The position numbers and the translations under genes were made by a program. A DNA stretch of 64,000 bases, taken from assembly GCA_016178135.1 (NCBI GenBank), contig JACOTW010000007.1, positions 431-64,430 on the forward strand, written 5' to 3'. How positions within the stretch are numbered: the first letter of the stretch is position 1; each line of letters opens with the position of its first letter. Below are positions 9,016 through 63,868 of the stretch, one piece after another. The notes under the pieces were generated by a model. It ran no database searches. It was not told the DNA's origin and was given only the letters and a program-made list of their open reading frames with translations. The DNA comes from Candidatus Saccharimonadota bacterium (lineage in GTDB: Bacteria; Patescibacteriota; Saccharimonadia; Saccharimonadales; JACOTW01).

Positions 9016-11463
9016 ATGTATTTAATATCAATAAATCTAACGATAGCCATCAGTCTAATGAAACAGTCAACAACTAAAGTTAGGAAAACAAAAACAATGA
9101 AAGCCAAAACTCCGTATAAGACTAACAAAAAACCAAAAAATACATTTTTGCAACAACTAAAGAAGCGATTACCACGTTCTCGTGTAGTCATGCTCTTGTT
9201 TGTTATCGTGTTCGCTTCTACAGGTATTTACTTTTTATTTTTTAGCAAAGCAGCGACACCTCTAACGGTTGAGCAAGTTGTTACGCAGTTTCCTCAAAGA
9301 CGTACGGTCTATGAAGACGCGATATTGGGCAGGGACGCCGCATCAGATTTTGATATGGGAGCAGCGCAGGGAACGATAATGTTGCAACGCCGTAATAGAG
9401 ACGGTGCGAGCGCCTGTAACGATGCCTGTGTTTCCAAGGCCAATGATCTAATTTATAACAGTACTGACAAGATAGATACGGCGGAGAAAGAATCACAAGC
9501 CATTCATCACGCGGCTGCATTTACGTATTTGCGTGCTTACTTGATGTTCAAGGATAAGCCGGACTTATTATATCCAGCTACCAAATCAAAGCTCAAGACT
9601 GGGTTGAAAAAAGATGGCACTACCAATGCCCAGAAATCATTGATGTTTTGGCGCAATAAGCTATTCGATAAATATACCGTTGATAATATCAATTTTGATA
9701 TAGCCAGTTTCAACCCTTGGAATCCAAAAGGATCAGGGGGCTATAACGGCACCGAAAACCACAAACTCCAGGTTATTACAACCGGTATGCTGATGTCGGA
9801 GGTTTATGCTGGAGAATCTTACAGAGGCTATGCGGTAAAAGACTCTACAGCTGTGCGTGATGATTACTGGCACTATTTCCGTGATGCCTTTTTCCGATAT
9901 TCTGACGCATGGGGGAATGACAGAACAGATCATTTCAGGCTAGATATTGCAGAATTTGAGAAAGATAGCGCTGGTTACGCGCATGTTTACATGGGTGATT
10001 ACTGGATGATTCGCGATTTGTTTCAGGATGCCGTGGTCCAAAAACATGCCGAGATTATGCTAGATCGATTGATGATTGATTGGTCAGAAGACATGGTAAA
10101 AAATATGTACACAGGGCAAAATGACCGATGGTACAGCATGGATGCGTCAGTTGGTGCATCACATCATTTACAGCCAATGAATTTCTTGCTTTTCGATAAT
10201 CTAGGGTATCAATTGCCAGCTGATTATAAGTATCTGTTTTCATGGGGACGCTGGGCAGCGTTGAGTATAGCAACCAGTGACTATAATCCTACGAACACGA
10301 ATTTTCCCAAGGCAATTATTGATGTAGCTCGAAACAAAGGGGACGGATATCTGGTAACAGATGGTACGGGACCAAAAGCTAACTGGGTTGAAAAAGATTT
10401 CGGCCTGGGATTTTTATTGGATGGCACTACCGGTGATGAACATCATTCGGGAGGCTTCTATATTCATAACACCAATTCCATGCCAGCTGGGCTAAATATT
10501 ATGCCTTATTTTGCGGTTGATTCCACCAAAGCCGATCCAGAGGGTTGTAAATCTCCGAGTCCGTGTAATGGTCCGTTTCGTAAACGCAAACCCGCCCATG
10601 ACGCTAAAGGGGTAGTGACCGAACGAGTCGCGATTACTCGTAGCAAAAGTGGAGATCTTAACCCCAGGATATGGATTCAGGATAAGTTTGATACCAAGGA
10701 CTATAGTTCACCACCATGGATGTTTTTTAAACAAAAGTCTTCCGAAGGACGGGATGTTTATATGGCAGTTCGCCCAAGTGCGGGTCAATTCGCGGATGAT
10801 GGAAATGCCCAAGGCGGGCAAATCAGAGTGCTTAAGGCAAACGAGGCAATCCTAATCTGGGAAGTCAGTACATCTGATGAGTATCCTTCATTGGCGGCAT
10901 TTAAGTCTGATATTTTGGATAATACCCTACAGGTTACATCATCCGATGTTACGTATAAATCCAGCAAACTAGGCACCACACTGTTGTTTAATCGTTCTGC
11001 TTTAACTAGCCACAAGATAAACGGTGTACTGCAAGATTTCAATACCTTTAAGTATGGTTTCAAGACTCCATTCCTCCAGAATCCCTATAATTCCAAAACA
11101 GCTAGTATTACCAGAAATGGCTACGGGGTTACGTATAATTGGGATCCCAATAATGATAATAATTTTGATGGGATGCCATCCAAATCCGTAGATAACACGG
11201 GCGGTAGTTCGTCCACTCCCCCACCATCCACTACAGACACCACCGCCCCCACCACTCCCACCAACCTGGCAGTCACACCCACAAGCTCTACCCAGATCGA
11301 TCTAAGCTGGACAGCCTCAACCGACAACGTTGGTGTAGCTGGTTACGATATTTATCGTGGCGGTACCAAGATAAACACTACCACTGTCGCCGGCTTCACA
11401 GACACAGGACTCCACCAGCTCCAGCCCCAACAACGACCACCAAAACTTACACCGCCACCCTAA
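9016..11463 (+). CDS. large secreted/anchored protein with a truncated C-terminal fibronectin type III domain
   Basis: Lys-rich N-terminus plus a TM segment. A Thr/Pro linker is followed by LAVTPTSSTQIDLSWTASTDNVGVAGYDIYRGG (the FN3 start). The central ~600 aa are unassigned. Confidence 0.6.
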   Translation: MYLISINLTIAISLMKQSTTKVRKTKTMKAKTPYKTNKKPKNTFLQQLKKRLPRSRVVMLLFVIVFASTGIYFLFFSKAATPLTVEQVVTQFPQRRTVYEDAILGRDAASDFDMGAAQGTIMLQRRNRDGASACNDACVSKANDLIYNSTDKIDTAEKESQAIHHAAAFTYLRAYLMFKDKPDLLYPATKSKLKTGLKKDGTTNAQKSLMFWRNKLFDKYTVDNINFDIASFNPWNPKGSGGYNGTENHKLQVITTGMLMSEVYAGESYRGYAVKDSTAVRDDYWHYFRDAFFRYSDAWGNDRTDHFRLDIAEFEKDSAGYAHVYMGDYWMIRDLFQDAVVQKHAEIMLDRLMIDWSEDMVKNMYTGQNDRWYSMDASVGASHHLQPMNFLLFDNLGYQLPADYKYLFSWGRWAALSIATSDYNPTNTNFPKAIIDVARNKGDGYLVTDGTGPKANWVEKDFGLGFLLDGTTGDEHHSGGFYIHNTNSMPAGLNIMPYFAVDSTKADPEGCKSPSPCNGPFRKRKPAHDAKGVVTERVAITRSKSGDLNPRIWIQDKFDTKDYSSPPWMFFKQKSSEGRDVYMAVRPSAGQFADDGNAQGGQIRVLKANEAILIWEVSTSDEYPSLAAFKSDILDNTLQVTSSDVTYKSSKLGTTLLFNRSALTSHKINGVLQDFNTFKYGFKTPFLQNPYNSKTASITRNGYGVTYNWDPNNDNNFDGMPSKSVDNTGGSSSTPPPSTTDTTAPTTPTNLAVTPTSSTQIDLSWTASTDNVGVAGYDIYRGGTKINTTTVAGFTDTGLHQLQPQQRPPKLTPPP

Positions 11464-16588: not shown

Positions 16589-18260
16589 AGAATTAGAGCT
16601 ACCAAGCAGTGCCGCTGAATTTAAAAAAGGTTGGCGCAAGTGGATTCCGGTAGTGATTTTGAGTTTGGCATTAATGATAATAGTATTGGACACCACGGTA
16701 CTTAATGTTTCCCTAAAAACTATTACTCAAGACCTAGGTACTGACTTAAAAGGTATCCAGTGGGTCATAACGGCCTATGCATTGACGTTGGCGTCATTGA
16801 CTATTACGGGTGGTCGTATGGGTGATTTGTTTGGCCGAAAACGAATGTTTATGGTTGGGGCAGTTATTTTTGCCATTGGTTCGTACATAACGTCAATCAG
16901 TCATTCGGTTGGAATAATGGTTATCGGTGAATCTATTATAGAAGGGATCGGTGCCGCTATGATGATGCCAGCTACCGCTTCTCTGCTTGTGGCAAACTAT
17001 CGAGGGCGTGATAGAGCGATTGCTTTTGGTATCTGGGGTGGTATAGCTGCGGCGGCGGCTGGTCTCGGGCCTATACTTGGTGGGTGGCTAACGACCAATT
17101 ACAGTTGGCGTTGGGCGTTTAGAATAAATATATTTGTAGCCGCGGTTTTACTGCTGGGTTCGTTATTAATTGATGAATCCGAAGACGAAGAAGAAAAACA
17201 CCAATTGGATGTACTGGGTGTCGTTCTTTCGGCAACGGGATTATTGTCGTTGGTTTTTGGTGTTATACAGTCGGCACAATTTGGTTGGTGGATGGCTAAT
17301 GAGTCATTTTCTGTTTTTGGTCATGCTATTAATATTTTTGGGCTATCTGTTACTCCGCTAGCTATTGCTTTGGGTATAGTTCTGCTTGTTACTTTTGGAT
17401 GGTCGCAGTTACGACGTGAAAAACTTGGATTGACGCCTCTGGTATCCATGAGATTATTCCAAAATTCACAGTTTACGGCTGGCGCAACAGTAACCATGAT
17501 TTTGTCACTTGGGCAGGTAGGTTTAATATTTGCCATTCCGGTATTTTTGCAGTCTGTGCGTAATTTAGATGCTTTGCATACCGGATTAGCACTCTTACCG
17601 ATGTCGGCATCTTTATTGATTGCGGCCCCATTCTCGGCAATAATTAGCAAAAAGTTTTTGCCAAAACGAATTGTGCAAGTTGGGTTAGCTATCAATGCTT
17701 TGGCTGCTTTGGTGATTTGGCAAAGTATTTCTGTTACAGCTACACCAGCCACGTTAGCTCCTGGCTTAATATTGTTTGGGGCTGGTATGGGATTGGTAAT
17801 GGCCCAGGTTAGTAATTTGACATTATCGGCAGTATCGGTAGACGAAGCCGGTGAAGCATCAGGTGTCAACAACACCATGAGGCAAATTGGGTCTTCTTTT
17901 GGATCGGCAATAATTGGAGCGGTTTTGTTTATGACTTTAGCTACTGGCTTGTCTAATGGTGTCAACAAAAGTACGGTTATTCCAGAGCAGTTAAAACCAA
18001 AATTATCACAGGCTTTGTCTTCTAGGGCTTCATCGGTTGAATTTGGTGGTGTCAGTAAGGCAGAGGGCAAAGATGCTCCAAAATTGTCCGAAACCGTACA
18101 GAACGAATTAACCGCAATTGCCCACCAAGCTTCGGCTGATGGCAGTAAAAAAGCTATAATTTTGACCGGCATGTTTGCATTATTGGCATTTATTGCGGCA
18201 GCAAAATTGCCCAATTCTATAACAATAGAACGCAACGAATCTCTAGCATCCAGACACTAA
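16569..18260 (+). CDS. MFS transporter, DHA2 (EmrB/QacA-like, 14-TM) family
   Basis: Motif A-like GGRMGDLFGRKR, many TM segments, and an extended C-terminus. Confidence 0.85.
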   Translation: MRTKMNKELELPSSAAEFKKGWRKWIPVVILSLALMIIVLDTTVLNVSLKTITQDLGTDLKGIQWVITAYALTLASLTITGGRMGDLFGRKRMFMVGAVIFAIGSYITSISHSVGIMVIGESIIEGIGAAMMMPATASLLVANYRGRDRAIAFGIWGGIAAAAAGLGPILGGWLTTNYSWRWAFRINIFVAAVLLLGSLLIDESEDEEEKHQLDVLGVVLSATGLLSLVFGVIQSAQFGWWMANESFSVFGHAINIFGLSVTPLAIALGIVLLVTFGWSQLRREKLGLTPLVSMRLFQNSQFTAGATVTMILSLGQVGLIFAIPVFLQSVRNLDALHTGLALLPMSASLLIAAPFSAIISKKFLPKRIVQVGLAINALAALVIWQSISVTATPATLAPGLILFGAGMGLVMAQVSNLTLSAVSVDEAGEASGVNNTMRQIGSSFGSAIIGAVLFMTLATGLSNGVNKSTVIPEQLKPKLSQALSSRASSVEFGGVSKAEGKDAPKLSETVQNELTAIAHQASADGSKKAIILTGMFALLAFIAAAKLPNSITIERNESLASRH

Positions 18261-18272
18261 TGTGTTTTTAGG

Positions 18273-19793
18273 TTATTCGACGGTAATTGGCTGTAGATTC
18301 TTGAGCCCTGTTTTCACAAGCCTAACAATAATCCGGCCAACACGAATAGCTATCGGATCAATTATGTTGGCTGGTATGACTGTCTTGGTGCGTGAAAACA
18401 AAAACTCCTGTTGATTGTCTTCGTTAGCAAGTTCTGTCAAGTACTCAATTGCTTGCACCAAAAAATCAATGTCGTGCCGGACTATTAATTCATCTAAAGC
18501 ATCCTGGGGACTTCTACGTCCCAGCAACTCAAACAATCTTATAATTTTTTCTTCGATTTCTGGGGCTAATGGTGATGCTTCAGTAATACGCAGGTTATCT
18601 ACTGTAAAGAGTTGGTCGATTTCCTGTATCAGATTAGTAATTTCTTGCATTTCAGGAGTTTTGGAAGTTTCCTGGATTAATGTGATTAGTTCGGCTAGTG
18701 ATTTTTCGATTGGTTGCCGACTGGCTGTTTCACGGATTTCTTCCAGATTGCCGATAGTATCAATGACTTCCAAGGAGCCTAAGTATTCTTCAAATAGGCC
18801 CACATTTGGGGTTTCTATTTGTGTATCAAAATCTTGTTCTGTATCTGCAACCGTATCCGTCACGAATGTAATTAATGGTTCTATAGTCATTACTGGCTCG
18901 ATATCGTCAGTTATACTGGACTTACGCAAAGCTCCCCCATCCCCAGACCAACTAATCTCGGCTGATAGTGGCCTGTCTTCTTTCGATGTGGCTACCTCTC
19001 CTTCAGCCAAACCACTCCCAACTCGAGCTGATTTAGCCTGGGAACGGGCGATTTTGCGTAAGTCCAGTTTATTTGGCATTAGTTTGACCTCTTCCTTGAT
19101 AATTGCTGTTTTTGGGTCTATACGGCTAGGCGTGTCAGTGTCAGGAATAAGCTCTGGGCTATCCTCCGTAATGGAGTCTTTATTAATAATATTTGTTTTG
19201 CCAGGAATAATGACGAACTTTGTTGCAATTATGGGTGATTTGGATATTTGCGTTTTGAGGGTAGGGGCTGGACTATTGGTTTCTTCGATGATTACCCGAA
19301 TATCAGAAACTTCATTTTTCAGTACATTTTCATTGTGTATAATTTCATGCCTCAAAGACGCTGGTAAGATAGGGCTGGGTAAGATTTCGATACGTGCAGT
19401 TTGTTTACTTGTTATCTTTGGCTCAAATACTTGGCTGACCTTAGCGGGGATAGTTGTTTCCGTGTTTTTATTCACTGCCCGGGGTGCTTTTTCTATAGTT
19501 GCTTCCGGATGTTTTACCTCGGTTTTTAAATAAGCTTCGACGACAATCTTGAAGGCTACTTCGCCCAGTTTGGCAAGATAGGGACATACCTCGCGCAGTT
19601 GTGATTCCGGTATAGTCATACCATTGTAGGTAATTATGCGCTCGGTCTGAATATCCCCTGTTGTAGTGGCCAAATTTTCCTGGTTGATCGTGGTAGCTGT
19701 TGCCCCCTCGGCGGTCGTATCAGAATGTTCCGCTAACCACCAGATTTCATCGCCAAGTTCTGGCACGGCACTCATTTCTATCGTGTCGGGCAA
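18273..19793 (-). CDS. acidic hypothetical protein (506 aa) carrying an in-frame family-B element
   Basis: Long ORF with 4-nt spacing to the upstream ORF. The antisense 372-aa ORF is a Ser/Ile-rich mirror artefact. Confidence 0.6.
   Translation of the reverse strand: MPDTIEMSAVPELGDEIWWLAEHSDTTAEGATATTINQENLATTTGDIQTERIITYNGMTIPESQLREVCPYLAKLGEVAFKIVVEAYLKTEVKHPEATIEKAPRAVNKNTETTIPAKVSQVFEPKITSKQTARIEILPSPILPASLRHEIIHNENVLKNEVSDIRVIIEETNSPAPTLKTQISKSPIIATKFVIIPGKTNIINKDSITEDSPELIPDTDTPSRIDPKTAIIKEEVKLMPNKLDLRKIARSQAKSARVGSGLAEGEVATSKEDRPLSAEISWSGDGGALRKSSITDDIEPVMTIEPLITFVTDTVADTEQDFDTQIETPNVGLFEEYLGSLEVIDTIGNLEEIRETASRQPIEKSLAELITLIQETSKTPEMQEITNLIQEIDQLFTVDNLRITEASPLAPEIEEKIIRLFELLGRRSPQDALDELIVRHDIDFLVQAIEYLTELANEDNQQEFLFSRTKTVIPANIIDPIAIRVGRIIVRLVKTGLKNLQPITVE
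18914..19069 (+). mobile_element. family-B element, copy B2, inside a coding region
   Basis: Both TIRs are present (ACTGGACTTACGCAAAG... and ...TTTTGCGTAAGTCCAGT) and it is flanked by TTAT/TTAT. It is translated as LDLRKIARSQAKSARVGSGLAEGEVATSKEDRPLSAEISWSGDGGALRKSS. Confidence 0.85.
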
Positions 19794-19796
19794 AAT

Positions 19797-20015
19797 TTAC
19801 TCCTTTGGTGCAAGATCGGTTACGAGTGTTCTGGCTTCTTCCATCGTCAGACTACCCAATATATTTAATAAATGATTGGTGCCCTCTTTGTCTACGCAAA
19901 GTGGCAGAGCATCAGCAAGAGAGGCAATTTCATCAGTTCCTGGTTTGACAACTGGCATGTCGCCAACCTTGTCTAAGATTGCTTGTACGTGCGGCGTATA
20001 TTCCGGCGAGCTCAT
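19797..20015 (-). CDS. hypothetical protein (72 aa)
   Basis: ORF only. It is probably co-transcribed with the 506-aa ORF. Confidence 0.4.
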   Translation of the reverse strand: MSSPEYTPHVQAILDKVGDMPVVKPGTDEIASLADALPLCVDKEGTNHLLNILGSLTMEEARTLVTDLAPKE

Positions 20016-20181
20016 ATTAACAGTATGGCAAAGTTTATCCCAATCGACAACTCGTTCGACTTAGCTCATCTAAAATCTTTCCCAAATAGTATTCGTTAGC
20101 TCATGAATAATGTTTCCGAGATAGAAACAATAAAGTATCGGTTAGTTGATATATGACACTAAAAGACTCCTATGACTCCTA

Positions 20182-20470
20182 TAGAAGACTGTCTTCTAAC
20201 TGATTTGGAACCCTAATCACCAAAATTCTTCCCTGTTAAGGGTGAGACCCTTTTAATTCCTTATGTTAGGAGTCGAGAAAATGGATGGGGTGGTCAAGTC
20301 AGGTATTAAATATGAACTTGCCGATCACTAGTACGCAATAATCCCCTCTCTGTTAGAGGACTGTCCTCTAGATCCCCCCATAATGTGATAATTTTAAGGC
20401 GAGGCGGTGATTCTTTATCTGTAAATTTATAAACTTGCAAACTTCCCATCTGTTAGGGGACAGTCCCTTA
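20182..20470. repeat. four dispersed 15-17-bp palindromes of one motif family
   Basis: TAGAAGAC-T-GTCTTCTA (20182-20198), AAGGGT-GAG-ACCCTT (20238-20252), TAGAGGAC-T-GTCCTCTA (20354-20370), TAGGGGAC-A-GTCCCTTA (20454-20470). Three are preceded by CTGTTA. Confidence 0.75.
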
Positions 20471-20508
20471 AGCTCCCAAATTGTATATCCGGGCCTTATG
20501 GGCGGGGG

Positions 20509-22338
20509 TCAGGCTCCGCTGCCGAGACTGTTGCGGGCCAGGAATGCGAGCAGGCTTGCCTGCGGTGTCGCGGAGAAGTTGCTTGCGTCGCCGTGCGTGC
20601 CGGTCGATGTCAGCGTGGTGACCTCTGCGGCATACGGTGTGACGGCGGTCACGAACGCGTCGAGGTTGGCAGCCTTGTTCATCGTGACGTCATCTGTGCT
20701 GGCAATACCCCACACGGGCACCCCACGGAACGCGGTCCCGGCCATGAGTGCCGGGTCGTGGCCTGCGGTCTTGGCGGCGTAGTCTCCGCTGATTCCGTAG
20801 GCCGTGTTGATTCCAGCGGTGAACGAGGCGTTGGCGTAACTCGCGGCGAGGTTCGTGGCAGGGTAGATCAGCGCCAGAGACGCGGCGGGAACCTTGCGGG
20901 CCGCGAGGGTCAGCGTGGCAGACAGCCCACCCATGGACTGCCCGAGGTGATGCACCGGGCCGATGGCGAAGTGATCCCGCAGGTACTGGTAGAGGTTGAC
21001 GTAGGCGTTGATCCCGGCGTCATTGCCCCAGTTGTTCGATCCCGCAAGCGTGGATGCCACGATGTACCCGGCATCCACAAGGGACTGGATGAACGCCCGT
21101 TTGACAACCTCGGAGAAGGGGCCGTTGGAGTCCTCACCGACGCCGTGGTGGTAGATGACCACGGGGGACGGGGTGCGCGAGTCATAGGCTTTGGGCACGC
21201 AGACCCGCATAGTGTTCGCGGCTGAGTCCACAGCGGTGACAACCCAATCCGCCGCCCCCTCCACGTTGGTCCGGGGCACGATGGTGTTGATGCTTGTCGT
21301 GGCGGCGATGGGGCCAATGCTGGTTCCGGACAGTTGTCGGGTGTCGTTGAGCCAGTACGACGCGGACACGTAGTTGGCCGCTTCGGGGATCGCAGACCAC
21401 GGGATGCGGTCGGTCCACTCGACGGTATGTGCGGCGTCGATGAGCGACGCGGAGATGCCCAACTCGTCGGACTCGATGGTCACGGTGTAGGTGGTGGAGA
21501 CCGTGATGAGGGCGGAAGCACCGACCGCGTACATGTTGCTGGTCGGGTAGCCGGGGACGAAGGTGCTAGCGTTCCACCGCTTCGGCTGGTTGCCCAGCAG
21601 TCCCCACATGAGCGAGTAGGTGCCGTTTGCGGGGAGCGCCCCGGTGTTGGCCCACAAGCCGAACATGGCCCAATCGGTGCCGCCCGCGACAAAGTTGATC
21701 GTGCCAGTGATGCGAAAGCGGGAGTTCTTGGGGACGACGAATGCCCGACCGCCGCCGCCAGGGTTCTGTATGGTGCCGAGGCCGTAGACCTTGCCCGCGC
21801 TAACTTGGCTTTGGGTGGCGGGGTTCCATGCGGTGAGGTTGGCCCATGTCTCGTTGAACCCGGTCGCGTCGTCACGGTCACGTCGCAGCCGGGTCACGGA
21901 GTTGGAGCGGTCCCCGGCTGCGAGGTCACCCAAACGGCGCAACGCGAACTGGTCGGCAGCCGTCCCATATGTGGAATTAGCGACCGTGGTGTCAATCTTG
22001 GCGGCGAGGGCTGCAGCCTGTAAGGTGCTGACCGGCTTGGCCGAGTCGGCAGTGTTGTCGACGGATCCCAAGCCGAGCGTGGTTGGGGTAATGGCAGCAG
22101 CAGCACCAGCCACGTCAAAGTCACTTGTAGCATGAGTAGAGGCAGTACCAAGTCCAAGGTTAGTCCGGGCAGTAGGAGCGTCAGTAAGATCACTTAGGTT
22201 ACTAGACTTGTCGGTTTTACTAGCTAGAGTACCAGTAGCCTTAAGACTACCGTCTGGGTTGTGCTCAACTGCTAGGAAGTCATTTAGGATTGTACCCCAA
22301 GTACCATTATCTGAACCAGGAGTTGGAAGTCTCGCCAT
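20509..22338 (-). CDS. mosaic tail-fibre-like protein with a C-terminal alpha/beta-hydrolase (esterase/lipase) domain
   Basis: 609 aa. The N-terminus has LPTPGSDNGTWGTILNDFL and TNLGLG repeats. The C-terminus has VVIYHHGVGED, a GQSMGG nucleophile elbow and THGD. About 70% GC from about codon 85 onward. Confidence 0.8.
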   Translation of the reverse strand: MARLPTPGSDNGTWGTILNDFLAVEHNPDGSLKATGTLASKTDKSSNLSDLTDAPTARTNLGLGTASTHATSDFDVAGAAAAITPTTLGLGSVDNTADSAKPVSTLQAAALAAKIDTTVANSTYGTAADQFALRRLGDLAAGDRSNSVTRLRRDRDDATGFNETWANLTAWNPATQSQVSAGKVYGLGTIQNPGGGGRAFVVPKNSRFRITGTINFVAGGTDWAMFGLWANTGALPANGTYSLMWGLLGNQPKRWNASTFVPGYPTSNMYAVGASALITVSTTYTVTIESDELGISASLIDAAHTVEWTDRIPWSAIPEAANYVSASYWLNDTRQLSGTSIGPIAATTSINTIVPRTNVEGAADWVVTAVDSAANTMRVCVPKAYDSRTPSPVVIYHHGVGEDSNGPFSEVVKRAFIQSLVDAGYIVASTLAGSNNWGNDAGINAYVNLYQYLRDHFAIGPVHHLGQSMGGLSATLTLAARKVPAASLALIYPATNLAASYANASFTAGINTAYGISGDYAAKTAGHDPALMAGTAFRGVPVWGIASTDDVTMNKAANLDAFVTAVTPYAAEVTTLTSTGTHGDASNFSATPQASLLAFLARNSLGSGA

Positions 22339-22378
22339 GGAATATATACACCTCTTTTATGCTTATCCTTTATATGTG

Positions 22379-22408
22379 AGTTTACCCCCCCCCGAGGGTT
22401 TTAGTCAA
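22379..22408 (-). promoter_or_regulatory. putative promoter of the mosaic gene with a G9/C9 tract in the spacer
   Basis: On the minus strand: TTGACT (22408-22403), an 18-nt spacer AAAACCCTC+G9 (C9 at 22385-22393 on the plus strand), TAAACT (22384-22379), then GAGGTG 10 nt before the ATG. Confidence 0.45.
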
Positions 22409-22440
22409 GATTCTATGAGGGATTCTATGAGGGATTATGG
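22409..22440. repeat. tandem 12-mer GATTCTATGAGG, 2 full copies plus a partial third
   Basis: Direct tandem copies at 22409-22420 and 22421-22432, then GATTATGGG. They sit immediately upstream of the putative -35. Confidence 0.8.
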
Positions 22441-22591
22441 GAAAAGAATACTAGACAGAGGCCTTAGAGCCACCTGTCAAGGACGTACCTTGACATGTTA
22501 TGGAAAACTGCGTGTTAATTTTACTTAGTTTTCAGGGTGCCAATAGGACGTTCCTCTATAAGAGTTAAATCGTGTTTGTTTGGATTTGGGG

Positions 22592-23050
22592 TTAGATTTC
22601 TAGGCCGGTTACGTATTGATATGATTCTAGGATGAAGTTTTTTACTACTTCTAGTTCTTTTTTGTCCATGGGAGTATAGAGTAACACCATGCCTGGCAAG
22701 CCAACGTGCTTGGCAACGGGGTGGGGTTCTGCCCAATCGTGTTCTATGGCTTGCAGGGCGATTGGTTCTGGTAGGGGTAAATGTAAGCTGGCATCTGGAT
22801 GAATATGAGCAAATTCGCGCCCGACTAGCATGGTTTCTGGGTGGATGGCGTGGACGGATTCGTCCAGCCACAGAGCACGGGCACCTGGTACGGAGATTTG
22901 GGTGGGCCGTTCCGAGACGTTTGGCAATGAAAAGCAATAATTTGCCAATTTTTGCATGATTCCATCTGGCGGTATAACACCAATTTGGGTATGAGGCATG
23001 CCCTGATGCACTGTCGGTTTGTTGGGTTTTTTGAATAATTTATCGGTCAT
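22592..23050 (-). CDS. conserved hypothetical protein (152 aa)
   Basis: Motif REFAHIHPDASLHLPLP...DWAEPHP resembles a small 'luciferase-like domain' (DUF5519-type) family as I recall it. The assignment is tentative. Confidence 0.5.
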   Translation of the reverse strand: MTDKLFKKPNKPTVHQGMPHTQIGVIPPDGIMQKLANYCFSLPNVSERPTQISVPGARALWLDESVHAIHPETMLVGREFAHIHPDASLHLPLPEPIALQAIEHDWAEPHPVAKHVGLPGMVLLYTPMDKKELEVVKNFILESYQYVTGLEI

Positions 23051-23907
23051 TTGATGCTCAACAGTCCTGTTGTGGGTAGTTTGGTGAGGTCAACTGTGCC
23101 GTGGCTGACAAACGAGCGCATGCCCGCACTGCCGTAATCGTAAAATTTATCATTAAAATAGTCCACGCCTTCATCTGGATCAAGTAGTGCCATGGCTGCC
23201 AACATGGGCCGATAATGATCGTCGGTAGGCACTGCCAATAAACCAGCTTGTCCTGCTTTGTGTGGATTTATGAGGCTATCCAAATGATAATTATCTATGG
23301 CTTGTTTGGTGTGGTTGTCAAACTCCATAGCCCAATCAAAAATACCGTCGTCAAACCGCATTGCACGCAAATTATGCACGATATTGCCACTGCCAATAAA
23401 CAACACTCCTTTTTGACGCAGAGGCTTTAATTGTCCGAATATACTCAGCAGGTCTTTTAACGACTTAGTCATGTCTAAACTTATCTGCAAAACCGGCACA
23501 TCTGGCTCTGGTAAAAGATGTTTGAGCACGCTCCAGGTGCCGTGATCCAACCCCCAACTGCTATCTAGTGCTGATTCGTATTTGATTAACTCCAAACGTA
23601 ATAATTTGGCTAGTTCGGGGTCGCCCTTGGCATCATACGTAACCTTGTAGAGTTCATCAGGAAAACCGTAAAAATCATAAATAATCGGCTGTTTTGGCGC
23701 ATCAGTAATGTGCGTGCCATGCGTCAGCCAATGAGCACTGATCACCACCACGGCTTGTGGCTTGGGCAACTGTTGCCCCACGATTTGCCAATTATCTGTT
23801 ACGGGGTCGGTCTGAATGGCGTGCATTGGGCTACCATGACCCACAAACAGGACTGGCATTTTGGGGCTAGGTTGTAGGTGCTCTGCTAATTTTTTGAGCT
23901 TGTCCAT
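23047..23907 (-). CDS. class III extradiol dioxygenase (YgiD / 4,5-DOPA dioxygenase family)
   Basis: PVLFVGHGSPMHAI, ISAHW and GSGNIVHNL motifs. Confidence 0.8.
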   Translation of the reverse strand: MDKLKKLAEHLQPSPKMPVLFVGHGSPMHAIQTDPVTDNWQIVGQQLPKPQAVVVISAHWLTHGTHITDAPKQPIIYDFYGFPDELYKVTYDAKGDPELAKLLRLELIKYESALDSSWGLDHGTWSVLKHLLPEPDVPVLQISLDMTKSLKDLLSIFGQLKPLRQKGVLFIGSGNIVHNLRAMRFDDGIFDWAMEFDNHTKQAIDNYHLDSLINPHKAGQAGLLAVPTDDHYRPMLAAMALLDPDEGVDYFNDKFYDYGSAGMRSFVSHGTVDLTKLPTTGLLSIK

Positions 23908-26578: not shown

Positions 26579-27010
26579 ATGCAGGCAGTAGCAGTAGCAG
26601 TAGCAGTATTAGTACAAAATAAAAAGACGACCCGTAGCAATGAATACATCCCGGGTGTGTGCAATATTGGTGAAGCTGAACGCGCCAAACGCCGTCAATC
26701 TGGCATTATCAGTACTCTTGTCGCGATAGTCCTATTAGTCTTATTAGTGGCTATTGACGCACCTAGGGGCTGGAGGTTACTGCTAATTTTGCCTGTTGCT
26801 GGAGCGGCTACGGGGTTTTTGCAAGATGCTATGCATTTTTGCGCTGGGTTTGGTTTGAAAGGTGTTTTTAATGTCATCAATAGTGCTGGTATAACTGACA
26901 GTGTTGACCTAGAAGAATTCCGCAAAAAAGACCGCCGCAAAGCATTACAAATTTCCGGATATAGTTTGGCAATCGGCACAGGAATTGCATTACTAAGCTT
27001 ACTAATTTAA
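26579..27010 (+). CDS. membrane protein (YgaP/DUF2892-like)
   Basis: NIGEAERAKRR followed by two TM segments. The assignment is tentative. Confidence 0.45.
   Translation: MQAVAVAVAVLVQNKKTTRSNEYIPGVCNIGEAERAKRRQSGIISTLVAIVLLVLLVAIDAPRGWRLLLILPVAGAATGFLQDAMHFCAGFGLKGVFNVINSAGITDSVDLEEFRKKDRRKALQISGYSLAIGTGIALLSLLI
26585..26608 (+). repeat. hexanucleotide repeat (GCAGTA)x4
   Basis: Tandem repeat at codons 3-10 of the ORF, encoding AVAVAVAV. Copy-number change would stay in frame. Confidence 0.9.
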
Positions 27011-32072: not shown

Positions 32073-32759
32073 TGGTGGGGATGGCAGGATTTGAACCTGC
32101 GACCAATCGGTTATGCGCACCACTACAACTTTCGTTGCCTCTTTCGAGTTTGTAGTCCGGACTGTCTCTTCATCCGCATATACGGATGCCTGCCATACAG
32201 TCTCTACACCTTCCCAGACTTTATAAAACTCTGGGCTTGGCTCGGGATTGCCAAGGCCGAAGCCGTAGGGTTCCCCGAATTTGACAAGATATACTTATCG
32301 GTTACCCGATAAGCAGCCCTTTTACTGTTTGACCTATCTAAGTTAACGTAATGGTTATGAAGAAAGAGTCTAACTGTAAAGTTTGTGGCGATGAACTGAC
32401 CGGAAAGCAAACGCTTTTTTGCTCAATAAAATGCAAAAATGCGTTGCATCAATCCTATCCTTCGCAAAAAAAGCGAGGAATAGAGCGTAAGCTACATTTC
32501 GTCAAAATGCTTGGCGGAAAATGCTCACACTGCGGTTACTCAGCCAATCTTGCCGGTTTGGCATTTCACCATTTAGGCGGCAAGGAATTTCAGCTGGATG
32601 TTCGTTCGCTGTCAAACCGAAAGATTGAACCCATTCTCAAAGAAGTTGCAAAATGCAAGCTTCTCTGTCACAACTGCCATGCAGAAGTGCACAATCCAGG
32701 CTTAGACTTAGCCAAATTGTCAATTGAGCCGACTGCTCTAACCACTGAGCTACATCCCC
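32073..32759 (-). tRNA. tRNA with CAU anticodon (Ile2/Met type) interrupted by a group I intron
   Basis: The 5' exon is 32759-32727 and the 3' exon 32115-32073. Joined, they give a 76-nt cloverleaf GGGGAUG...CGGCU|CAUAACCG...CAUCCCCACCA with a perfect acceptor stem and encoded CCA. Confidence 0.85.
32116..32726 (-). ncRNA. group I intron (IC3-like core) in the anticodon loop
   Basis: The 5' exon ends in U and the intron ends in G. The core strings GUCAAAUUCGGGGAACCCUACGG, GGCAAUCCCGAGCCAAGC and GAAGGUGUAGAGACUGUAUGGCA match the conserved core of bacterial tRNA introns such as the Azoarcus tRNA-Ile intron, as I recall it. Confidence 0.8.
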
Positions 32760-32827
32760 ATCGACCAAAAGAAGTATATCAGATTAGTTTAACAAAACTA
32801 ACAGATCCACGGCAACTTAGAGAGTAG
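32351..32827 (+). CDS. HNH homing-endonuclease-like protein encoded antisense within the intron
   Basis: CxxC pairs, then FHHLGG...N...CKLLCHNCHAEVHN (HNH). The ORF runs out through the antisense of the tRNA 5' exon. Confidence 0.75.
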   Translation: MVMKKESNCKVCGDELTGKQTLFCSIKCKNALHQSYPSQKKRGIERKLHFVKMLGGKCSHCGYSANLAGLAFHHLGGKEFQLDVRSLSNRKIEPILKEVAKCKLLCHNCHAEVHNPGLDLAKLSIEPTALTTELHPHRPKEVYQISLTKLTDPRQLRE

Positions 32828-47556: not shown

Positions 47557-47561
47557 AATTA

Positions 47562-47724
47562 TACTGGACTTGTCGCAAAATCCCCCGTTCCCAGGGCGAA
47601 TCAGCTCGAGCGAAAACAGTTTTGTCTGAAGGAGAGGTACCCAGGAGGTACATCGAGAGAGGAAAAACTGTTTGTAGCCGAGGTTAGTCGGTCTGGGGAT
47701 GAGGGATTTTGCGTAAGTCCAGTT
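47562..47724 (-). mobile_element. family-B element, copy B8 (full length, reverse orientation)
   Basis: TA|TACTGGACTTGTCGCAAAATC...GGGATTTTGCGTAAGTCCAGTT|TA. It fills the whole gap between two genes. Confidence 0.85.
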
Positions 47725-62571: not shown

Positions 62572-63746
62572 AGAAGCCACCTTCCACCCCCCACCTTCCA
62601 CCTTCCAAATCGCCACGCGTGGCGATTGTGCATGATTGGTTATATGGTGGCGGAGCTGAGAAAGTTGTTTTGGAACTCCATAAAATGTTTCCGAAAGCAC
62701 CGATTTACACCTCGTATTGCACTGATGAGTGGCGGCAAAAACTGGATAACAAGGTTGTGACTGGCTATTTACAATACTGGCCATTCAGTAAATTACGAAA
62801 ATTTTTACCGATTCTGCGCCAACGCTGGTTCAGCGGATTAAATCTTGAGGGTTTTGATTTAGTTATCAGCAGCTCGGGCAATGGCGAAGCCAAATTTGTC
62901 CTATCAAAAATGCCATCTTCCAAACCAGTGCATATCTGTTACTGTCATACACCTCCGCACTTCTTGTGGAACAAATATGATCAATATCTAGAAAACCCTG
63001 GATTTCGTCCTAAATGGTTAGCAAGACTGGGTCTAAAATTACTAGTAAAACCACTTAGAAAACGTGACTACAACATAGCACAAAGAGTTGATTTTTTTAT
63101 TGCTAACTCAACCCATATTCAATCATATATAAAGCAGTATTATGGCCGAGATTCAGTGGTTATCCATCCGCCTGTTGATACTGATAGGTTTTCTAAAATC
63201 AAAGGGACCCAGAGGCAGGGTTTTATAACTGTTGGACGCCAAAATCCTTATAAAAGAACCGACATTTTGATTACTGCTTGCAACAAGCTCAAATTGCCTT
63301 TAACCGTAATTGGCAAAGGCCCCGAACATAAAGACCTAGTTAAGCTGGCTGGCCCTACAATTATGTTTGATACAAATGCCGATGACGACGCTATCGTCGA
63401 GTATATGGCTTCAACCGAGGCGTTTTTATTTGCCGCTGAAGAAGATTTTGGCATTACACCTGTTGAAGCCATGGCAGCCGGCACGCCGGTTATTGCCTAT
63501 AAGGCAGGAGGCGCCTTAGACTATGTTATAGAAGGCAAAACTGGATTATTTTTTGAAGAACAAACATCTGAAAGTTTAATGAAAGTCTTGCAAGATTTTA
63601 ATCCCAAAAAAATTGACGGCATAGAAATTAGCAAACATTCCGAGCTCTTTGCCGAAAAGCAATTCCATAAAAAGTTTAATAAGTTACTAACCGAAAATGT
63701 TCTATACTGGACTTACGCAAAGCTCCCTCATCCCCAGACCGAATAA
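62568..63746 (+). CDS. glycosyltransferase family 4 (GT-B, group 1)
   Basis: The C-terminal EDFGITPVEAMAAGTPVIA motif. The last ~13 codons and the stop are encoded by B10. Confidence 0.85.
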   Translation: MKKPPSTPHLPPSKSPRVAIVHDWLYGGGAEKVVLELHKMFPKAPIYTSYCTDEWRQKLDNKVVTGYLQYWPFSKLRKFLPILRQRWFSGLNLEGFDLVISSSGNGEAKFVLSKMPSSKPVHICYCHTPPHFLWNKYDQYLENPGFRPKWLARLGLKLLVKPLRKRDYNIAQRVDFFIANSTHIQSYIKQYYGRDSVVIHPPVDTDRFSKIKGTQRQGFITVGRQNPYKRTDILITACNKLKLPLTVIGKGPEHKDLVKLAGPTIMFDTNADDDAIVEYMASTEAFLFAAEEDFGITPVEAMAAGTPVIAYKAGGALDYVIEGKTGLFFEEQTSESLMKVLQDFNPKKIDGIEISKHSELFAEKQFHKKFNKLLTENVLYWTYAKLPHPQTE

Positions 63747-63868
63747 CCTCGGCTACAAACAGTTTTTCCTCTCTCGATGTACCTCCCTGGTACCTCTCCT
63801 TCAGACAAAACTGTTTTCGCTCGAGCTGATTCGCCCTGGGAACGAGGGATTTTGCGACAGGCCCAGTA
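63705..63868 (+). mobile_element. family-B element, copy B10 (full length; used here as the forward reference)
   Basis: TACTGGACTTACGCAAAGCTCCCTCATCCCCAGACCGAAT...CTGGGAACGAGGGATTTTGCGACAGGCCCAGTA. It is essentially the reverse complement of B8. Confidence 0.85.

Follow-up and report, generated by a model that had tools for sequence, protein, structure and literature searches.

Phage tail fibres, tailspikes and tailocins are known to exchange C-terminal parts, as in T4-type adhesins, Klebsiella depolymerases, and Pectobacterium and Pseudomonas tailocins; the exchanged bodies include beta-helix depolymerases, esterases and deacetylases. A related set of actinophage proteins comprises the esterases gp33 of Seahorse and gp32 of Faja (both Arthrobacter phages), a tail fibre/virion structural protein of Arthrobacter phage vB_ArS-ArV2, the minor tail proteins of Gordonia phages Barco and Mellie, and PHROG 10356, and these proteins vary in genomic position between tail and lysis regions; the records retrieved for them name no biochemical substrate. 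In Patescibacteria, only type IV pili, T4SS and unnamed "adhesins" have so far been implicated in host recognition, and Saccharibacteria possess natural competence, double-crossover recombination and essential adhesins (PMC10633639, PMC11665869).

We present here a gene for a 609-aa protein in a 64-kb window (the whole stretch of DNA that was analysed, 64,000 nucleotides) from a metagenome-assembled genome (MAG) that NCBI names Candidatus Saccharibacteria, the kind of organism that an earlier note on this DNA had supposed. We judge it likely that this open reading frame (ORF) is a real mosaic gene, with a body that would be phage-derived and a product that would act as a fibre on a bacterial envelope. 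Like the fibres of phages and tailocins, it combines a conserved N-terminal anchor with a swappable C-terminal enzymatic or binding module, joined in a conserved linker or repeat. Unlike them, the recipient belongs to a lone chromosomal gene family of Patescibacteria, and the exchange spans a GC gap of 20 points and so implies that host-phage DNA entered an epibiont, a transfer between unrelated lineages. With the actinophage esterases it shares a homologous two-domain body (beta-sandwich plus alpha/beta-hydrolase), the same catalytic motifs and high GC; it differs from them in that the body lies in the chromosome of a cell, an epibiont of 43% GC, where no other phage genes are nearby, and is fused to an N-terminal head of non-phage context. 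The features of the locus are given in Table 1.

The overall GC content of the window is 42.9%. A two-change-point maximum-likelihood fit over the whole window delimits a block of 65.0% GC at 20489-22117, and every other 1-kb bin is at or below 0.53. Within the ORF, GC3 rises from 0.29 in codons 1-85 (25/85) to 0.83 in the rest (434/524; Fisher p = 1.6e-22), with the change point at codon 85 (window position 22083). The LLR of this step is 96, against a 99th percentile of 12.8 and a maximum of 16.6 in 500 simulated homogeneous genes and values of at most 10.6 in 26 other genes of the window. Because GC3 across the window genes is 0.38 ± 0.04, codons 1-85 are native-like; the body lies about 10 SD off. 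The base-level change point lies upstream of that in GC3, by ~30 nt, and codon-by-codon reading shows that codons 76-85 (VAGAAAAITP) are GC-rich at positions 1 and 2, yet end in T. The GC-rich DNA extends 20 nt beyond the stop codon, to 20489. Two LGLG copies flank the switch, written ctt gga ctt ggt at L61-G64 and ctc ggc ttg gga at L88-G91. The earlier note had described A/T-ending codons in the first ~80 positions and G/C-ending ones in the rest, a switch between these two copies and a GC-rich stretch running ~20 nt past the stop; the GC and GC3 profile of the region bears out each of these, and only the GC content of the body had been set too high (~70%, measured at 65%). A composition off that of the resident genome, bounded this sharply, is a mark of horizontal transfer.

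Table 1. Features of the mosaic gene and its surroundings, with positions in the 64-kb window
Feature	Position	Strand	Basis or remark
12-nt tandem duplication GATTCTATGAGG x2, abutting the -35 hexamer upstream	22409..22432	-	Repeat search
Promoter-like site TTGACT, 18-nt spacer, TAAACT	22379..22408	-	Consensus match only
G9 homopolymer (C9 on +) within promoter spacer	22385..22393	-	G10 in second strain
Shine-Dalgarno GAGGTG, 10 nt before ATG	22349..22354	-	Sequence inspection
Mosaic ORF, 609 aa, ATG start	20509..22338	-	ORF list; same product called in GCA_040960765.1
Resident AT-type part, codons 1-85, GC3 0.29	22084..22338	-	GC3 step analysis
Conserved family head MARLPTPGSDNGTWGTILNDFLAVEHNPDGSLK, codons 1-33	22240..22338	-	16 invariant positions in alignment A3
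First fibre repeat SNLSDLTDAPTARTNLGLGTAST, AT-type codons	22135..22203	-	Common to head-family P0020, P0121 and P0016
Putative recombination joint zone, codons 82-87 (AITPTT), codon-usage switch	22078..22095	-	Codon reading and GC3 change point
Putative acquired block: codons 86-609, stop and 20 nt more; 65% GC, un-ameliorated	20489..22083	-	Composition
Second, actinophage-type fibre motif TTLGLGSVDNTADSAKPVSTLQAAALAAKIDTT, GC-type codons	21985..22083	-	Amino acid and nucleotide phage matches
Central beta-sandwich domain, residues ~175-350, probably carbohydrate-binding	21289..21816	-	AF2 model; LamG/ConA-like and GH43-CE matches
Predicted alpha/beta-hydrolase esterase domain, residues ~365-605	20524..21246	-	AF2 pLDDT ~90, Foldseek, profile matches
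His398-Gly399, predicted oxyanion-hole HG motif	21142..21147	-	At least 90% conserved
Ser468, predicted nucleophile in GQSMGG	20935..20937	-	Invariant in 14 family members
Asp550, predicted catalytic acid	20689..20691	-	Invariant
His582, predicted catalytic base	20593..20595	-	Invariant
19-nt palindrome TTAGGGGAC-A-GTCCCTTAA, 18 nt beyond 3' end of GC block	20453..20471	.	One of three related sites
Second palindrome TTAGAGGAC-T-GTCCTCTA(A), operator-like	20353..20370	.	Upstream of 72-aa and 506-aa ORFs

The head belongs to an unnamed Patescibacterial family (P0020, P0012, P0068, P0081 and P0096, among others), partly annotated as BppL_N (PF18338) or DUF5907 (PF19264); the mosaic ORF itself matches neither. 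All 16 invariant positions of the family alignment are found in its head, which carries the motif MARLPxPG..WG..LNDFL (family consensus M-x-R-L-P-x-P-G-x-D-x-x-x-W-G-x-x-L-N-x-x-L...H..DG..K, from residue 1) and shares 53-80% identity with those of chromosomal Patescibacterial genes. JGI metagenomes contain 355 head relatives. The members with a named source are all Saccharimonadales or Patescibacteria, and the genes are lone and chromosomal, hundreds of them sharing the head and differing widely in their C-terminal enzyme domains (deacetylase, SGNH esterase, pectate-lyase beta-helix, GH39). The mosaic ORF follows this pattern in its first 33 residues, NLGLG fibre repeats, lone setting and variable enzymatic C-terminus, and departs from it in its phage-esterase body, which just 2 of 155 other esterase-family members examined pair with the head. 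A head-only protein search returned short fragments only, with no more than 59% identity across most of the head, and thus no near-identical resident head. Native codon usage, with the N-termini of lone Saccharimonadales/Patescibacteria chromosomal genes as nearest relatives, agrees with the resident 5' part that had been proposed. The N-terminus had also been called phage-like, and this holds too: proteins of Streptomyces phages match residues 1-35 at 60-63% identity, residues 40-120 match tail-fibre and minor-tail PHROGs, and residues 37-122 match 19 PHROGs in all, nine of them tail-fibre/minor-tail/tail-protein families and two virion structural protein families.

Steps of the same kind recur in the family. 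About 10 distinct head-family genes, on contigs of 47-54% GC and with unrelated bodies, show a GC3 step at codons 50-95 (LLR 23-44); that of the mosaic ORF is the steepest (LLR 96 versus at most 44). Searched against phages, these other bodies gave just a 46-aa C-terminal patch to Arthrobacter phages and a fibronectin-like patch to Burkholderia jumbo phages, so we claim no actinophage origin for them. Two loci, L146 and L149, match at ~99% identity over tatC and into the head gene for its first ~83 nt, beyond which they diverge, and tandem paralogs are present. At the sequence level, the conserved head has demonstrably served as a recombination handle between paralogs elsewhere in the family, and the recurrence of the step in ~10 members suggests a general evolutionary mechanism, not a one-off event.

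The body begins with the second fibre motif, TTLGLGSVDNTADSAKPVSTLQAAALAAKIDTT, which is 58-72% identical at the amino acid level to minor tail proteins of Arthrobacter and Microbacterium phages; the nucleotide matches listed for this stretch are to Arthrobacter and Gordonia phage minor tail genes, at 73-83% identity. At 22057-22068, a BamHI and a SalI site stand side by side and encode the GSVD of the LGLGSVDNT fibre motif. An engineered construct was considered and rejected: the LGLGSVDNT region matches actinophage minor tail proteins, and the sequence is present in independent environmental assemblies. In the AF2 monomer model, residues 1-135 are of low confidence, compatible with a fibre; no signal peptide or membrane anchor was recognisable in the protein. 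The central beta-sandwich is probably carbohydrate-binding, to judge from the model and its fold matches.

The C-terminus is, as predicted from sequence and model, an alpha/beta-hydrolase esterase. Foldseek gives a probability of 1.00 to many alpha/beta hydrolases, and the Foldseek and profile matches comprise phage esterases as well as feruloyl, CE1-type and other esterases. The HG, GQSMGG and THGD motifs from which the fold had first been proposed lie at residues 398-399, 466-471 (a G-x-S-x-G elbow) and 581-584; S468, M469 and G470 are invariant in 14 homologs, and the invariant triad residues S468, D550 and H582, in the order Ser-Asp-His, follow strands E459-467, E542-547 and E573-578 of the AF2 model. 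Pfam matches are weak and below the curated thresholds (PF00756, Esterase, 19.4 bits versus a cut-off of 22; Abhydrolase_1, 19.1 versus 25.8), and no NCBIfam profile matches the protein; its CE1/Esterase resemblance is one of fold and profile only. The fold, the GxSxG elbow, the Ser-Asp-His order and the HG oxyanion motif are common to CE1-type feruloyl/acetyl-xylan esterases, LC-Est1C and esterase D (6mly, 3wyd, 7z2x, 1jjf, 3fcx), and 6mly likewise couples the esterase to a beta-sandwich domain; the sequence identity to this set, however, is a mere 11-16%.

The closest relatives of the body are P0002 (61% amino acid identity) and P0003 (55%), both from 64% GC DNA; P0003 carries a Gp34_trimer domain and is encoded on a phage-like 59.8-kb contig. 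No donor sequence closer than 61% amino acid identity was found. The body groups with both in a neighbor-joining tree (without bootstrap values), nested among sequences of the putative donor lineage, and two further relatives, P0183 and P0188, lie on phage contigs of 70% and 62% GC. Annotated relatives are mostly esterases and minor tail proteins of Arthrobacter, Gordonia and Microbacterium phages; Seahorse gp33 (AYR01533.1) aligns with 97% of the body (35% identity). In blastn, the 33 phage matches at the nucleotide level are all to actinophages, the best fold matches in BFVD are Arthrobacter phage esterases (best E 8e-39), and the median GARP/FYMINK ratio of the body family is 1.66, versus 1.01 in window genes, an amino acid composition of the GC type. 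One relative at 91% coverage comes from a Xanthomonas jumbo phage, so the module is not exclusive to actinophages. IMG/VR viral contigs returned no relatives of the body. The contig of the best full-context homolog, L001, has no recognisable relatives among known phages: its 1805-aa protein has no phage-database match, and its 490-aa protein matches an uncultured mangrove phage only.

By segment, the head-family members with a named source are Saccharimonadales/Patescibacteria and the annotated relatives of the body mostly actinophages, and the GC of the latter's sources supports the high-GC phage or actinobacterial origin that the earlier note had put forward. Its description of the body as a tail fibre stands in part. 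The body matches the virion structural family PHROG 10356 (E 1e-16) and actinophage minor tail proteins, but the Seahorse homolog adjoins lysin A in the lysis cassette, not the tail genes. In Streptomyces phage LuckySocke, the head-bearing gene sits among tRNA genes. Given these two placements, neither part can be assigned with assurance to the virion or to receptor binding.

The ORF lies among MFS, MarR, MMPL, ABC/FtsX, LigB, HxlR and ADH genes, and no phage gene, nor any phage, prophage or tailocin cluster, was found within 10 kb on either side. A search with the LigB-like flank for the orthologous locus in sister genomes gave two Saccharibacteria at 62%, then Aeromicrobium and others, with no synteny. 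A mobile-element insertion was rejected, since the GC block is not framed by direct or inverted repeats and has neither an integrase nor a transposase in its vicinity, and a diversity-generating retroelement was rejected because the neighbouring genes scanned, within ~10 kb, gave no reverse-transcriptase match and the step covers 1.6 kb, not a short variable region. The three related palindrome sites are confined to the intergenic region beyond the 3' end.

The mosaic would have arisen by uptake of DNA from a phage or prophage of high GC, whose host was most likely an actinobacterium, followed by in-frame recombination at or near a fibre-repeat region common to both partners, by which the 3' part of a resident head-family gene would have been replaced or supplied. 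The acquisition may be recent, to judge from the absence of amelioration and of strain differences in the region. The events may also have run in the reverse order, with a whole phage gene first entering the interval from the luciferase-domain gene to the 72-aa ORF and its 5' part later overwritten by gene conversion from a head paralog. In L146, L149 and L133, recombination between paralogs through the head is directly visible, some actinophage proteins bear a homologous head that would supply homology for conversion, and P0186 and P0312 are head-plus-esterase combinations elsewhere. We nevertheless regard this order as unlikely: there is no head-family paralog within the 64-kb window, and the promoter, Shine-Dalgarno sequence and upstream region are native, with no GC-rich remnants upstream of the ORF, while the GC block stops 20 nt past the stop, so that an insertion would have needed very precise trimming.

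Replacement within a resident gene also has to be weighed against an assembly chimera, in which 1.6 kb of high-GC DNA from another organism or phage was joined by the assembler at shared k-mers. The source is a MAG, the joint lies within a motif (LGLG..VDNT) common to many fibre genes, and the exact joint 30-mer has no match among other JGI metagenome contigs. A second assembly, GCA_040960765.1 (654-kb contig), nonetheless contains the exact 609-aa product, the same synteny and flanks, and both junctions. It is 99.4% identical to the window overall, with several indels elsewhere, and across 17871-22383, which includes both junctions, there are zero differences; the allele comparison, which covered this one other strain, found the same allele. 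Two further NCBI protein accessions exist for a 534-aa form, the insert is in frame and ends 20 nt after the stop, where the same chromosome resumes, and the shared motif is AT-type in one copy and GC-type in the other at the DNA level, so long shared k-mers are unlikely. The check for a chimera that the earlier note had called for was made at the level of assemblies, from samples that could be related, and makes this explanation very improbable.

Slightly less probable again is that the real gene is a wholly foreign 534-aa hydrolase starting at GTG codon 76, with the 75 AT-rich codons as an untranslated leader. NCBI annotates only this form, as "alpha/beta hydrolase", so that the head is concealed in the annotation; its pipeline picked GTG76 in two MAGs, and this codon falls almost at the composition boundary. 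Residues 1-104, however, are 53% identical to the N-terminus of P0020 (blastp E 1e-26), and dozens more proteins match the head in alignments that each begin at residue 1. Since the head is thus homologous to P0020 and a Shine-Dalgarno sequence precedes the ATG (none was found before GTG76), we take the ATG as the true start; the gene call in GCA_040960765.1 is likewise 609 aa. Least credible is a native gene made heterogeneous by amino acid selection, codon bias or local mutation, with no horizontal transfer, for although ~10 other head-family genes also have a low-GC3 head and a high-GC3 body, possibly as a family trait, and most of those bodies could be traced to no phage donor, the step here affects synonymous sites, is abrupt (~5 codons) and includes 20 non-coding nt, many family members are compositionally uniform, and the body has homologs in high-GC phages and actinophage matches at the nucleotide level.

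Upstream, the G9 tract in the promoter spacer is the sole G/C run of at least 8 nt in the window (~0.1 expected). Its length differs between the two assemblies (G9 and G10), a comparison of two sequences in which a homopolymer sequencing error is possible, and this difference between strains makes it a candidate phase-variation tract. Contingency loci of Neisseria and Haemophilus have phase-variable promoters whose -35/-10 spacer contains a homopolymer. The tract described here resembles them in lying exactly between -35-like and -10-like hexamers and in its 1-nt strain difference, and differs in that the candidate is known from two sequences and the promoter from a consensus match. Slippage between G9 and G10 may act as an expression switch.

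The mosaic gene would encode a fibre-like, probably trimeric protein. Its head would dock it to a conserved partner on the epibiont, and its distal beta-sandwich and esterase would bind and de-esterify an envelope polymer of the host bacterium in the manner of the phage protein, with expression perhaps switched by slippage in the promoter spacer. The clade of the donor would then be that of the host, and the esterase a putative host-envelope effector. A wider possibility, which we hold only tentatively, is that Saccharibacteria, and Patescibacteria at large, maintain a chromosomal head-based fibre family that has time and again captured modules for receptor binding or cell-wall modification from the phages of their actinobacterial hosts, with the head serving both to dock or export the product and to recombine, and with this gene phase-variable.

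This work adds the head concealed by the 534-aa annotation, ~10 further genes with a GC step and the G9/G10 promoter-spacer tract. The gene is a case of in-frame domain capture across a 20-point GC gap, and it brings to light a widespread, modular family of genes obscured by current annotation, with its truncation to "alpha/beta hydrolase". It is also a concrete candidate for host recognition: a fibre-like protein with a distal module of the actinophage kind. The epibiont may have borrowed a phage tool to act on the cell surface of its likely host. If so, phage host-recognition hardware would help the epibiont to find, attach to or breach its host, and the captured module could predict the host of an uncultivated epibiont via phage-host pairs.

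In a window of 42.9% GC, a two-change-point likelihood fit isolated a single block of 65.0% GC, with no second block like it anywhere in the 64 kb. The block sits within a 609-aa ORF that starts with ATG (ORF609). GC3 is 0.29 in codons 1 to 85 and 0.83 over the rest of the ORF, codon 86 onward (25/85 versus 434/524 G/C third positions; Fisher p = 1.6e-22), with the change point at window position 22083. The likelihood-ratio statistic of this step is 96; it had a 99th percentile of 12.8 and a maximum of 16.6 in 500 simulated homogeneous genes and did not exceed 10.6 in the 26 other long ORFs of the window, whose GC3 is 0.38 ± 0.04. Read codon by codon, usage switches between A81 (gct) and T87 (acg). 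Of the two LGLG copies on either side, the first (residues 61 to 64) is encoded by ctt gga ctt ggt and the second (88 to 91) by ctc ggc ttg gga. Past the TGA, 20 further GC-rich nt precede the fall to flank composition. The fit, the GC3 counts, and the simulated null bear out the intragenic jump in GC and codon usage described in an earlier note, as the codons of the two LGLG copies do its placement of the switch between them; the ~70% GC that it gave for the 3′ part, here called the body, is corrected to 65%. ORF609 is a real mosaic that joins, in frame, the head of a resident Patescibacterial gene family to an esterase module of actinophage type, un-ameliorated in composition.

Adjacent BamHI and SalI sites (GGATCCGTCGAC, window 22057-22068) lie 15 nt inside the GC joint. 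This sequence encodes the GSVD of the fibre motif LGLGSVDNT, in a region matching actinophage minor tail proteins. The adjacency is judged a coincidence, as GGATCCGTCGAC is also present in independent environmental assemblies.

Assembly chimerism, which the earlier note wished to see excluded, is unlikely because the insert is in frame, the same chromosome resumes 20 nt past the stop, and a second assembly agrees. The exact 609-aa form, with both composition boundaries, is encoded on a 654,487-bp contig of GCA_040960765.1. Gene order at that locus (L003) is that of the window over ~22 kb, and the 99.4% identity, with many SNPs and several indels, marks it as a different strain and not the same assembly. 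Over 17871-22383, covering the whole ORF and both boundaries, there are zero differences; the first is one added G in a homopolymer at 22384/5. The length of this G tract is the sole difference between both strains within 17871-23523. An exact 30-mer spanning the joint had no match in JGI metagenome contigs. Elsewhere, indels of about 108, 9, 9, and 12 bp separate the strains at 11410/11411, 11727, 25296, and 26585-26596, and SNP density is ~14/kb to the right of the mosaic gene and ~0.5/kb across 12.4-22.4 kb.

Residues 1 to 104 share 53% identity with the N-terminus of the homologous protein P0020 (blastp E 1e-26). Dozens more proteins match over the first 100 to 180 residues, each from its own residue 1, and have unrelated C-termini (polysaccharide deacetylase, SGNH esterase, pectate-lyase-like beta-helix, and glycine-rich domains, among others). 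The shared head comprises the first 33 residues, with 16 invariant positions across nine aligned members, and a degenerate head pattern retrieved 355 relatives from JGI metagenome contigs. All source-named members are Saccharimonadales, Patescibacteria, or Microsaccharimonas, and in the fetched contexts they are lone genes adjoining housekeeping genes, including those for Leu-tRNA synthetase, Ddl, Mur ligases, GroEL, TatC, and PhoD. Residues 1 to 35 resemble N-termini of Streptomyces phage proteins (60 to 63% identity), residues 1 to 52 resemble a collagen-repeat protein of phage BRock (50%), and residues 37 to 122 match many tail-fibre and minor-tail PHROGs; BppL_N and DUF5907 are carried by head-family relatives. 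Given the Patescibacterial members and the phage fibre and tail matches, sequence comparison identifies the head as a resident Patescibacterial module of fibre-protein ancestry. The head homology and a GAGGTG located 10 nt upstream support the ATG as the probable true start of the 609-aa product. An identical (100%) 534-aa protein is listed under two NCBI accessions as [quoted passage not shown]; its start is GTG codon 76, which has no Shine-Dalgarno sequence before it, so the public annotation conceals the chimeric protein.

Word-indexed searches with residues 120 to 609 found only 14 relatives. The closest, P0002 (61% identity) and P0003 (55%), both lie in 64% GC DNA with GC3 of 0.78 to 0.80. 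P0003 is 774 aa long with a Gp34 long-tail-fibre trimerisation domain, and its 59.8-kb contig is phage-like, with a YadA-stalk protein adjoining and an M15 peptidase and an 1805-aa protein nearby. P0002 starts with MCIRDS, the translated Nextera adapter ATGTGTATAAGAGACAG, at ~position 264 of contig L002 (ENA ERZ27248510 k119_48353); the 5′ end of this contig is an adapter artefact, so the P0002 N-terminus as read is not genuine. The more distant P0183 and P0188 are on clear phage contigs (70% and 62% GC) carrying portal, capsid, and tape-measure genes as well as DUF397 and DUF732, both typical of actinobacteria. A profile search without word index returned 851 cluster representatives at E <= 1e-30, variable at their N-termini and GC-type in amino-acid composition. 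The "esterase" gp33 of Arthrobacter phage Seahorse is 35% identical across 97% of the body, and other annotated matches are Arthrobacter, Gordonia, and Microbacterium phage esterases, minor tail proteins, or tail fibre proteins; one annotated relative, from a Xanthomonas jumbo phage, is not from an actinophage. At the nucleotide level, all 33 of the 33 matching phage records are actinophages. The majority of the listed matches cover ~90 nt directly inside the 5′ joint, encoding LGLGSVDNTADSAKPVS, and fall within minor tail protein genes. These records and the relatives in 62 to 70% GC DNA agree with the high-GC donor (Actinobacteria or their phages) first suggested for the body, and with the resident head family they support the mosaic interpretation.

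In an AF2 model of the monomer, confidence is low over the N-terminal 135 residues, which is what a fibre shaft would give when modelled singly; a beta-sandwich spans residues ~175-350 and a confident alpha/beta-hydrolase residues 365-605. Fold and profile matches include feruloyl, CE1-type, and other esterases, a GH43-CE bifunctional enzyme, and phage esterases; S468 (GQSMGG), D550, and H582 are invariant and H398-G399 almost so. The serine esterase/lipase fold read from motifs in the earlier note is thereby supported. Pfam matches fall under threshold, so ORF609 is not placed in any named esterase family.

The same kind of GC step is present in 14 of 80 fetched head-family loci (~10 distinct genes), on contigs of 47 to 54% GC with chromosomal flanks; GC3 rises from ~0.35-0.49 to 0.72-0.80 at codons 50 to 95 (LLR 23 to 44). 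Their bodies are mutually unrelated (beta-helix/pectate-lyase, GH39+LamG, and several unknown folds). Another gene that combines the head with an esterase, P0186, has 60% GC inside a 51% GC contig; its body is only 34% identical to that of ORF609 and it belongs to a different clade, which favours independent capture of the esterase module in the two genes. Phages and tailocins are known to swap domains between their fibre proteins; such swapping in a chromosomal gene family of an epibiont, with modules from high-GC phages, was described in none of the papers searched.

At the joint, the resident segment terminates within "...DFDVAGAAAA", a motif shared with family member P0016 (locus L093), and the foreign segment opens with an actinophage-type fibre motif; thus, fibre-repeat architecture is common to both partners, and the foreign 3′ part would have been joined in frame there. 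Natural competence and DNA integration by double crossover are known in Saccharibacteria (PMC10633639), and living on an actinobacterium would bring an epibiont into contact with DNA of the host and of phages. The foreign part may have directly replaced a resident body, or a phage gene may have inserted first and had its 5′ end overwritten later by a resident head. Within the head family, locus comparisons indicate that the head demonstrably mediates recombination. Loci L146 and L149, whose TatC proteins are 100% identical, match at ~99% identity from tatC across the intergenic region to ~83 nt into the head gene, where they part into unrelated bodies. A tandem second head gene is present in the L149/L133 haplotype, and the whole pattern looks like an unequal crossover between conserved heads. 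Contigs with 100% identical tatC (JGI Ga02653xx L146, L149, L150, and L133) carry different head-family genes 390 nt downstream, with products of 760 aa in L146 and 346 aa in L149 and L150; L133 is arranged like L149.

The neighbours of the mosaic gene are ordinary chromosomal or accessory genes: ABC/FtsX, MMPL, MarR, and MFS genes and then two ORFs (506 and 72 aa) on one side, and luciferase-domain protein, LigB-like dioxygenase, HxlR, ADH, LUD, and P-type ATPase genes on the other (see the table). None of them is a phage, integrase, or transposase gene, and no repeats flanking the GC block on both sides were found. The G9 tract in the spacer of the upstream promoter-like site is the sole G/C homopolymer of at least 8 nt in the window (~0.1 expected). 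It is G10 in GCA_040960765.1, a comparison of two assemblies in which homopolymer error is possible. Slipped-strand phase switches are classically laid out in this way, with a homopolymer in a promoter spacer, and by analogy the tract may be a candidate switch. Downstream, TTAGRGGAC-N-GTCCYCTAA has 3 matches against 0.06 expected, and these palindromes look like putative operators for the 72-aa and 506-aa genes. The mosaic gene and these ORFs, with no terminator detected in between, are possibly co-transcribed; the two ORFs have no Pfam, PHROG, or NCBIfam match and no 90%-identity cluster mates outside their own species.

Coordinates of the mosaic gene and other features of the window
Feature	Position	Strand	Details
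Mosaic gene (ORF609)	20509-22338	-	609 aa
GC block	20489-22117		65.0% GC
Promoter-like site	22379-22408		TTGACT-18 nt-TAAACT, upstream of mosaic gene
G9 tract	22385-22393		C9 on + strand
Related palindromes	20353-20370, 20453-20471, 20186-20203		intergenic only, mosaic gene to 72-aa/506-aa ORFs
506-aa (acidic) and 72-aa ORFs	18273-20015	-	directly downstream of mosaic gene, same strand
LigB-like dioxygenase	23047-23907	-	nearest relatives two Saccharibacteria MAGs, 62%
Group I intron	32135-32341	-	Rfam 72.6 bits
Cys-rich ORF	32351-32827	+	158 aa
~160-bp repeat family	47560-47723, 63697-63856; L003 4210-4368		91-92% identity
815-aa ORF	9016-11463	+	no Pfam match

After the two MAGs, the next relatives of the LigB-like dioxygenase are from Aeromicrobium spp. 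and other Actinomycetota (53 to 56%, all ~70% GC); by these relationships, the gene may have come from Actinobacteria in an earlier transfer and since been ameliorated, and it may point to the host lineage. The group I intron lies between a DivIC-like gene and the opposite-strand Cys-rich ORF, and no tRNA could be reconstructed from its flanks. The third ~160-bp repeat copy, in L003, is missing from the window at the matching site (~27980), and the family may represent a small repeat, mobile or intergenic, whose presence varies between strains. The C-terminal 64 residues of the 815-aa ORF give a partial NCBIfam exoglucanase CbhB match far under cut-off; this ORF and a 912-aa fn3-containing protein near it in L003 are possible large surface proteins.

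The order of head, fibre repeats, beta-sandwich, and esterase in ORF609 suggests a receptor-binding or receptor-modifying fibre. The product has no signal peptide or anchor, and the Seahorse homolog adjoins lysin A, which counts against this function. Adhesins are essential for epibiotic growth (PMC10633639, PMC11665869). According to PMC13622651, citing Zhong 2024, host genes for a predicted cell-wall polysaccharide make the host susceptible to a lytic phage, and saccharibacterial infection reportedly favours host phage resistance. The predicted fibre would act on a host cell-envelope polymer, a role that this literature on adhesins and host phage resistance makes no more than plausible.
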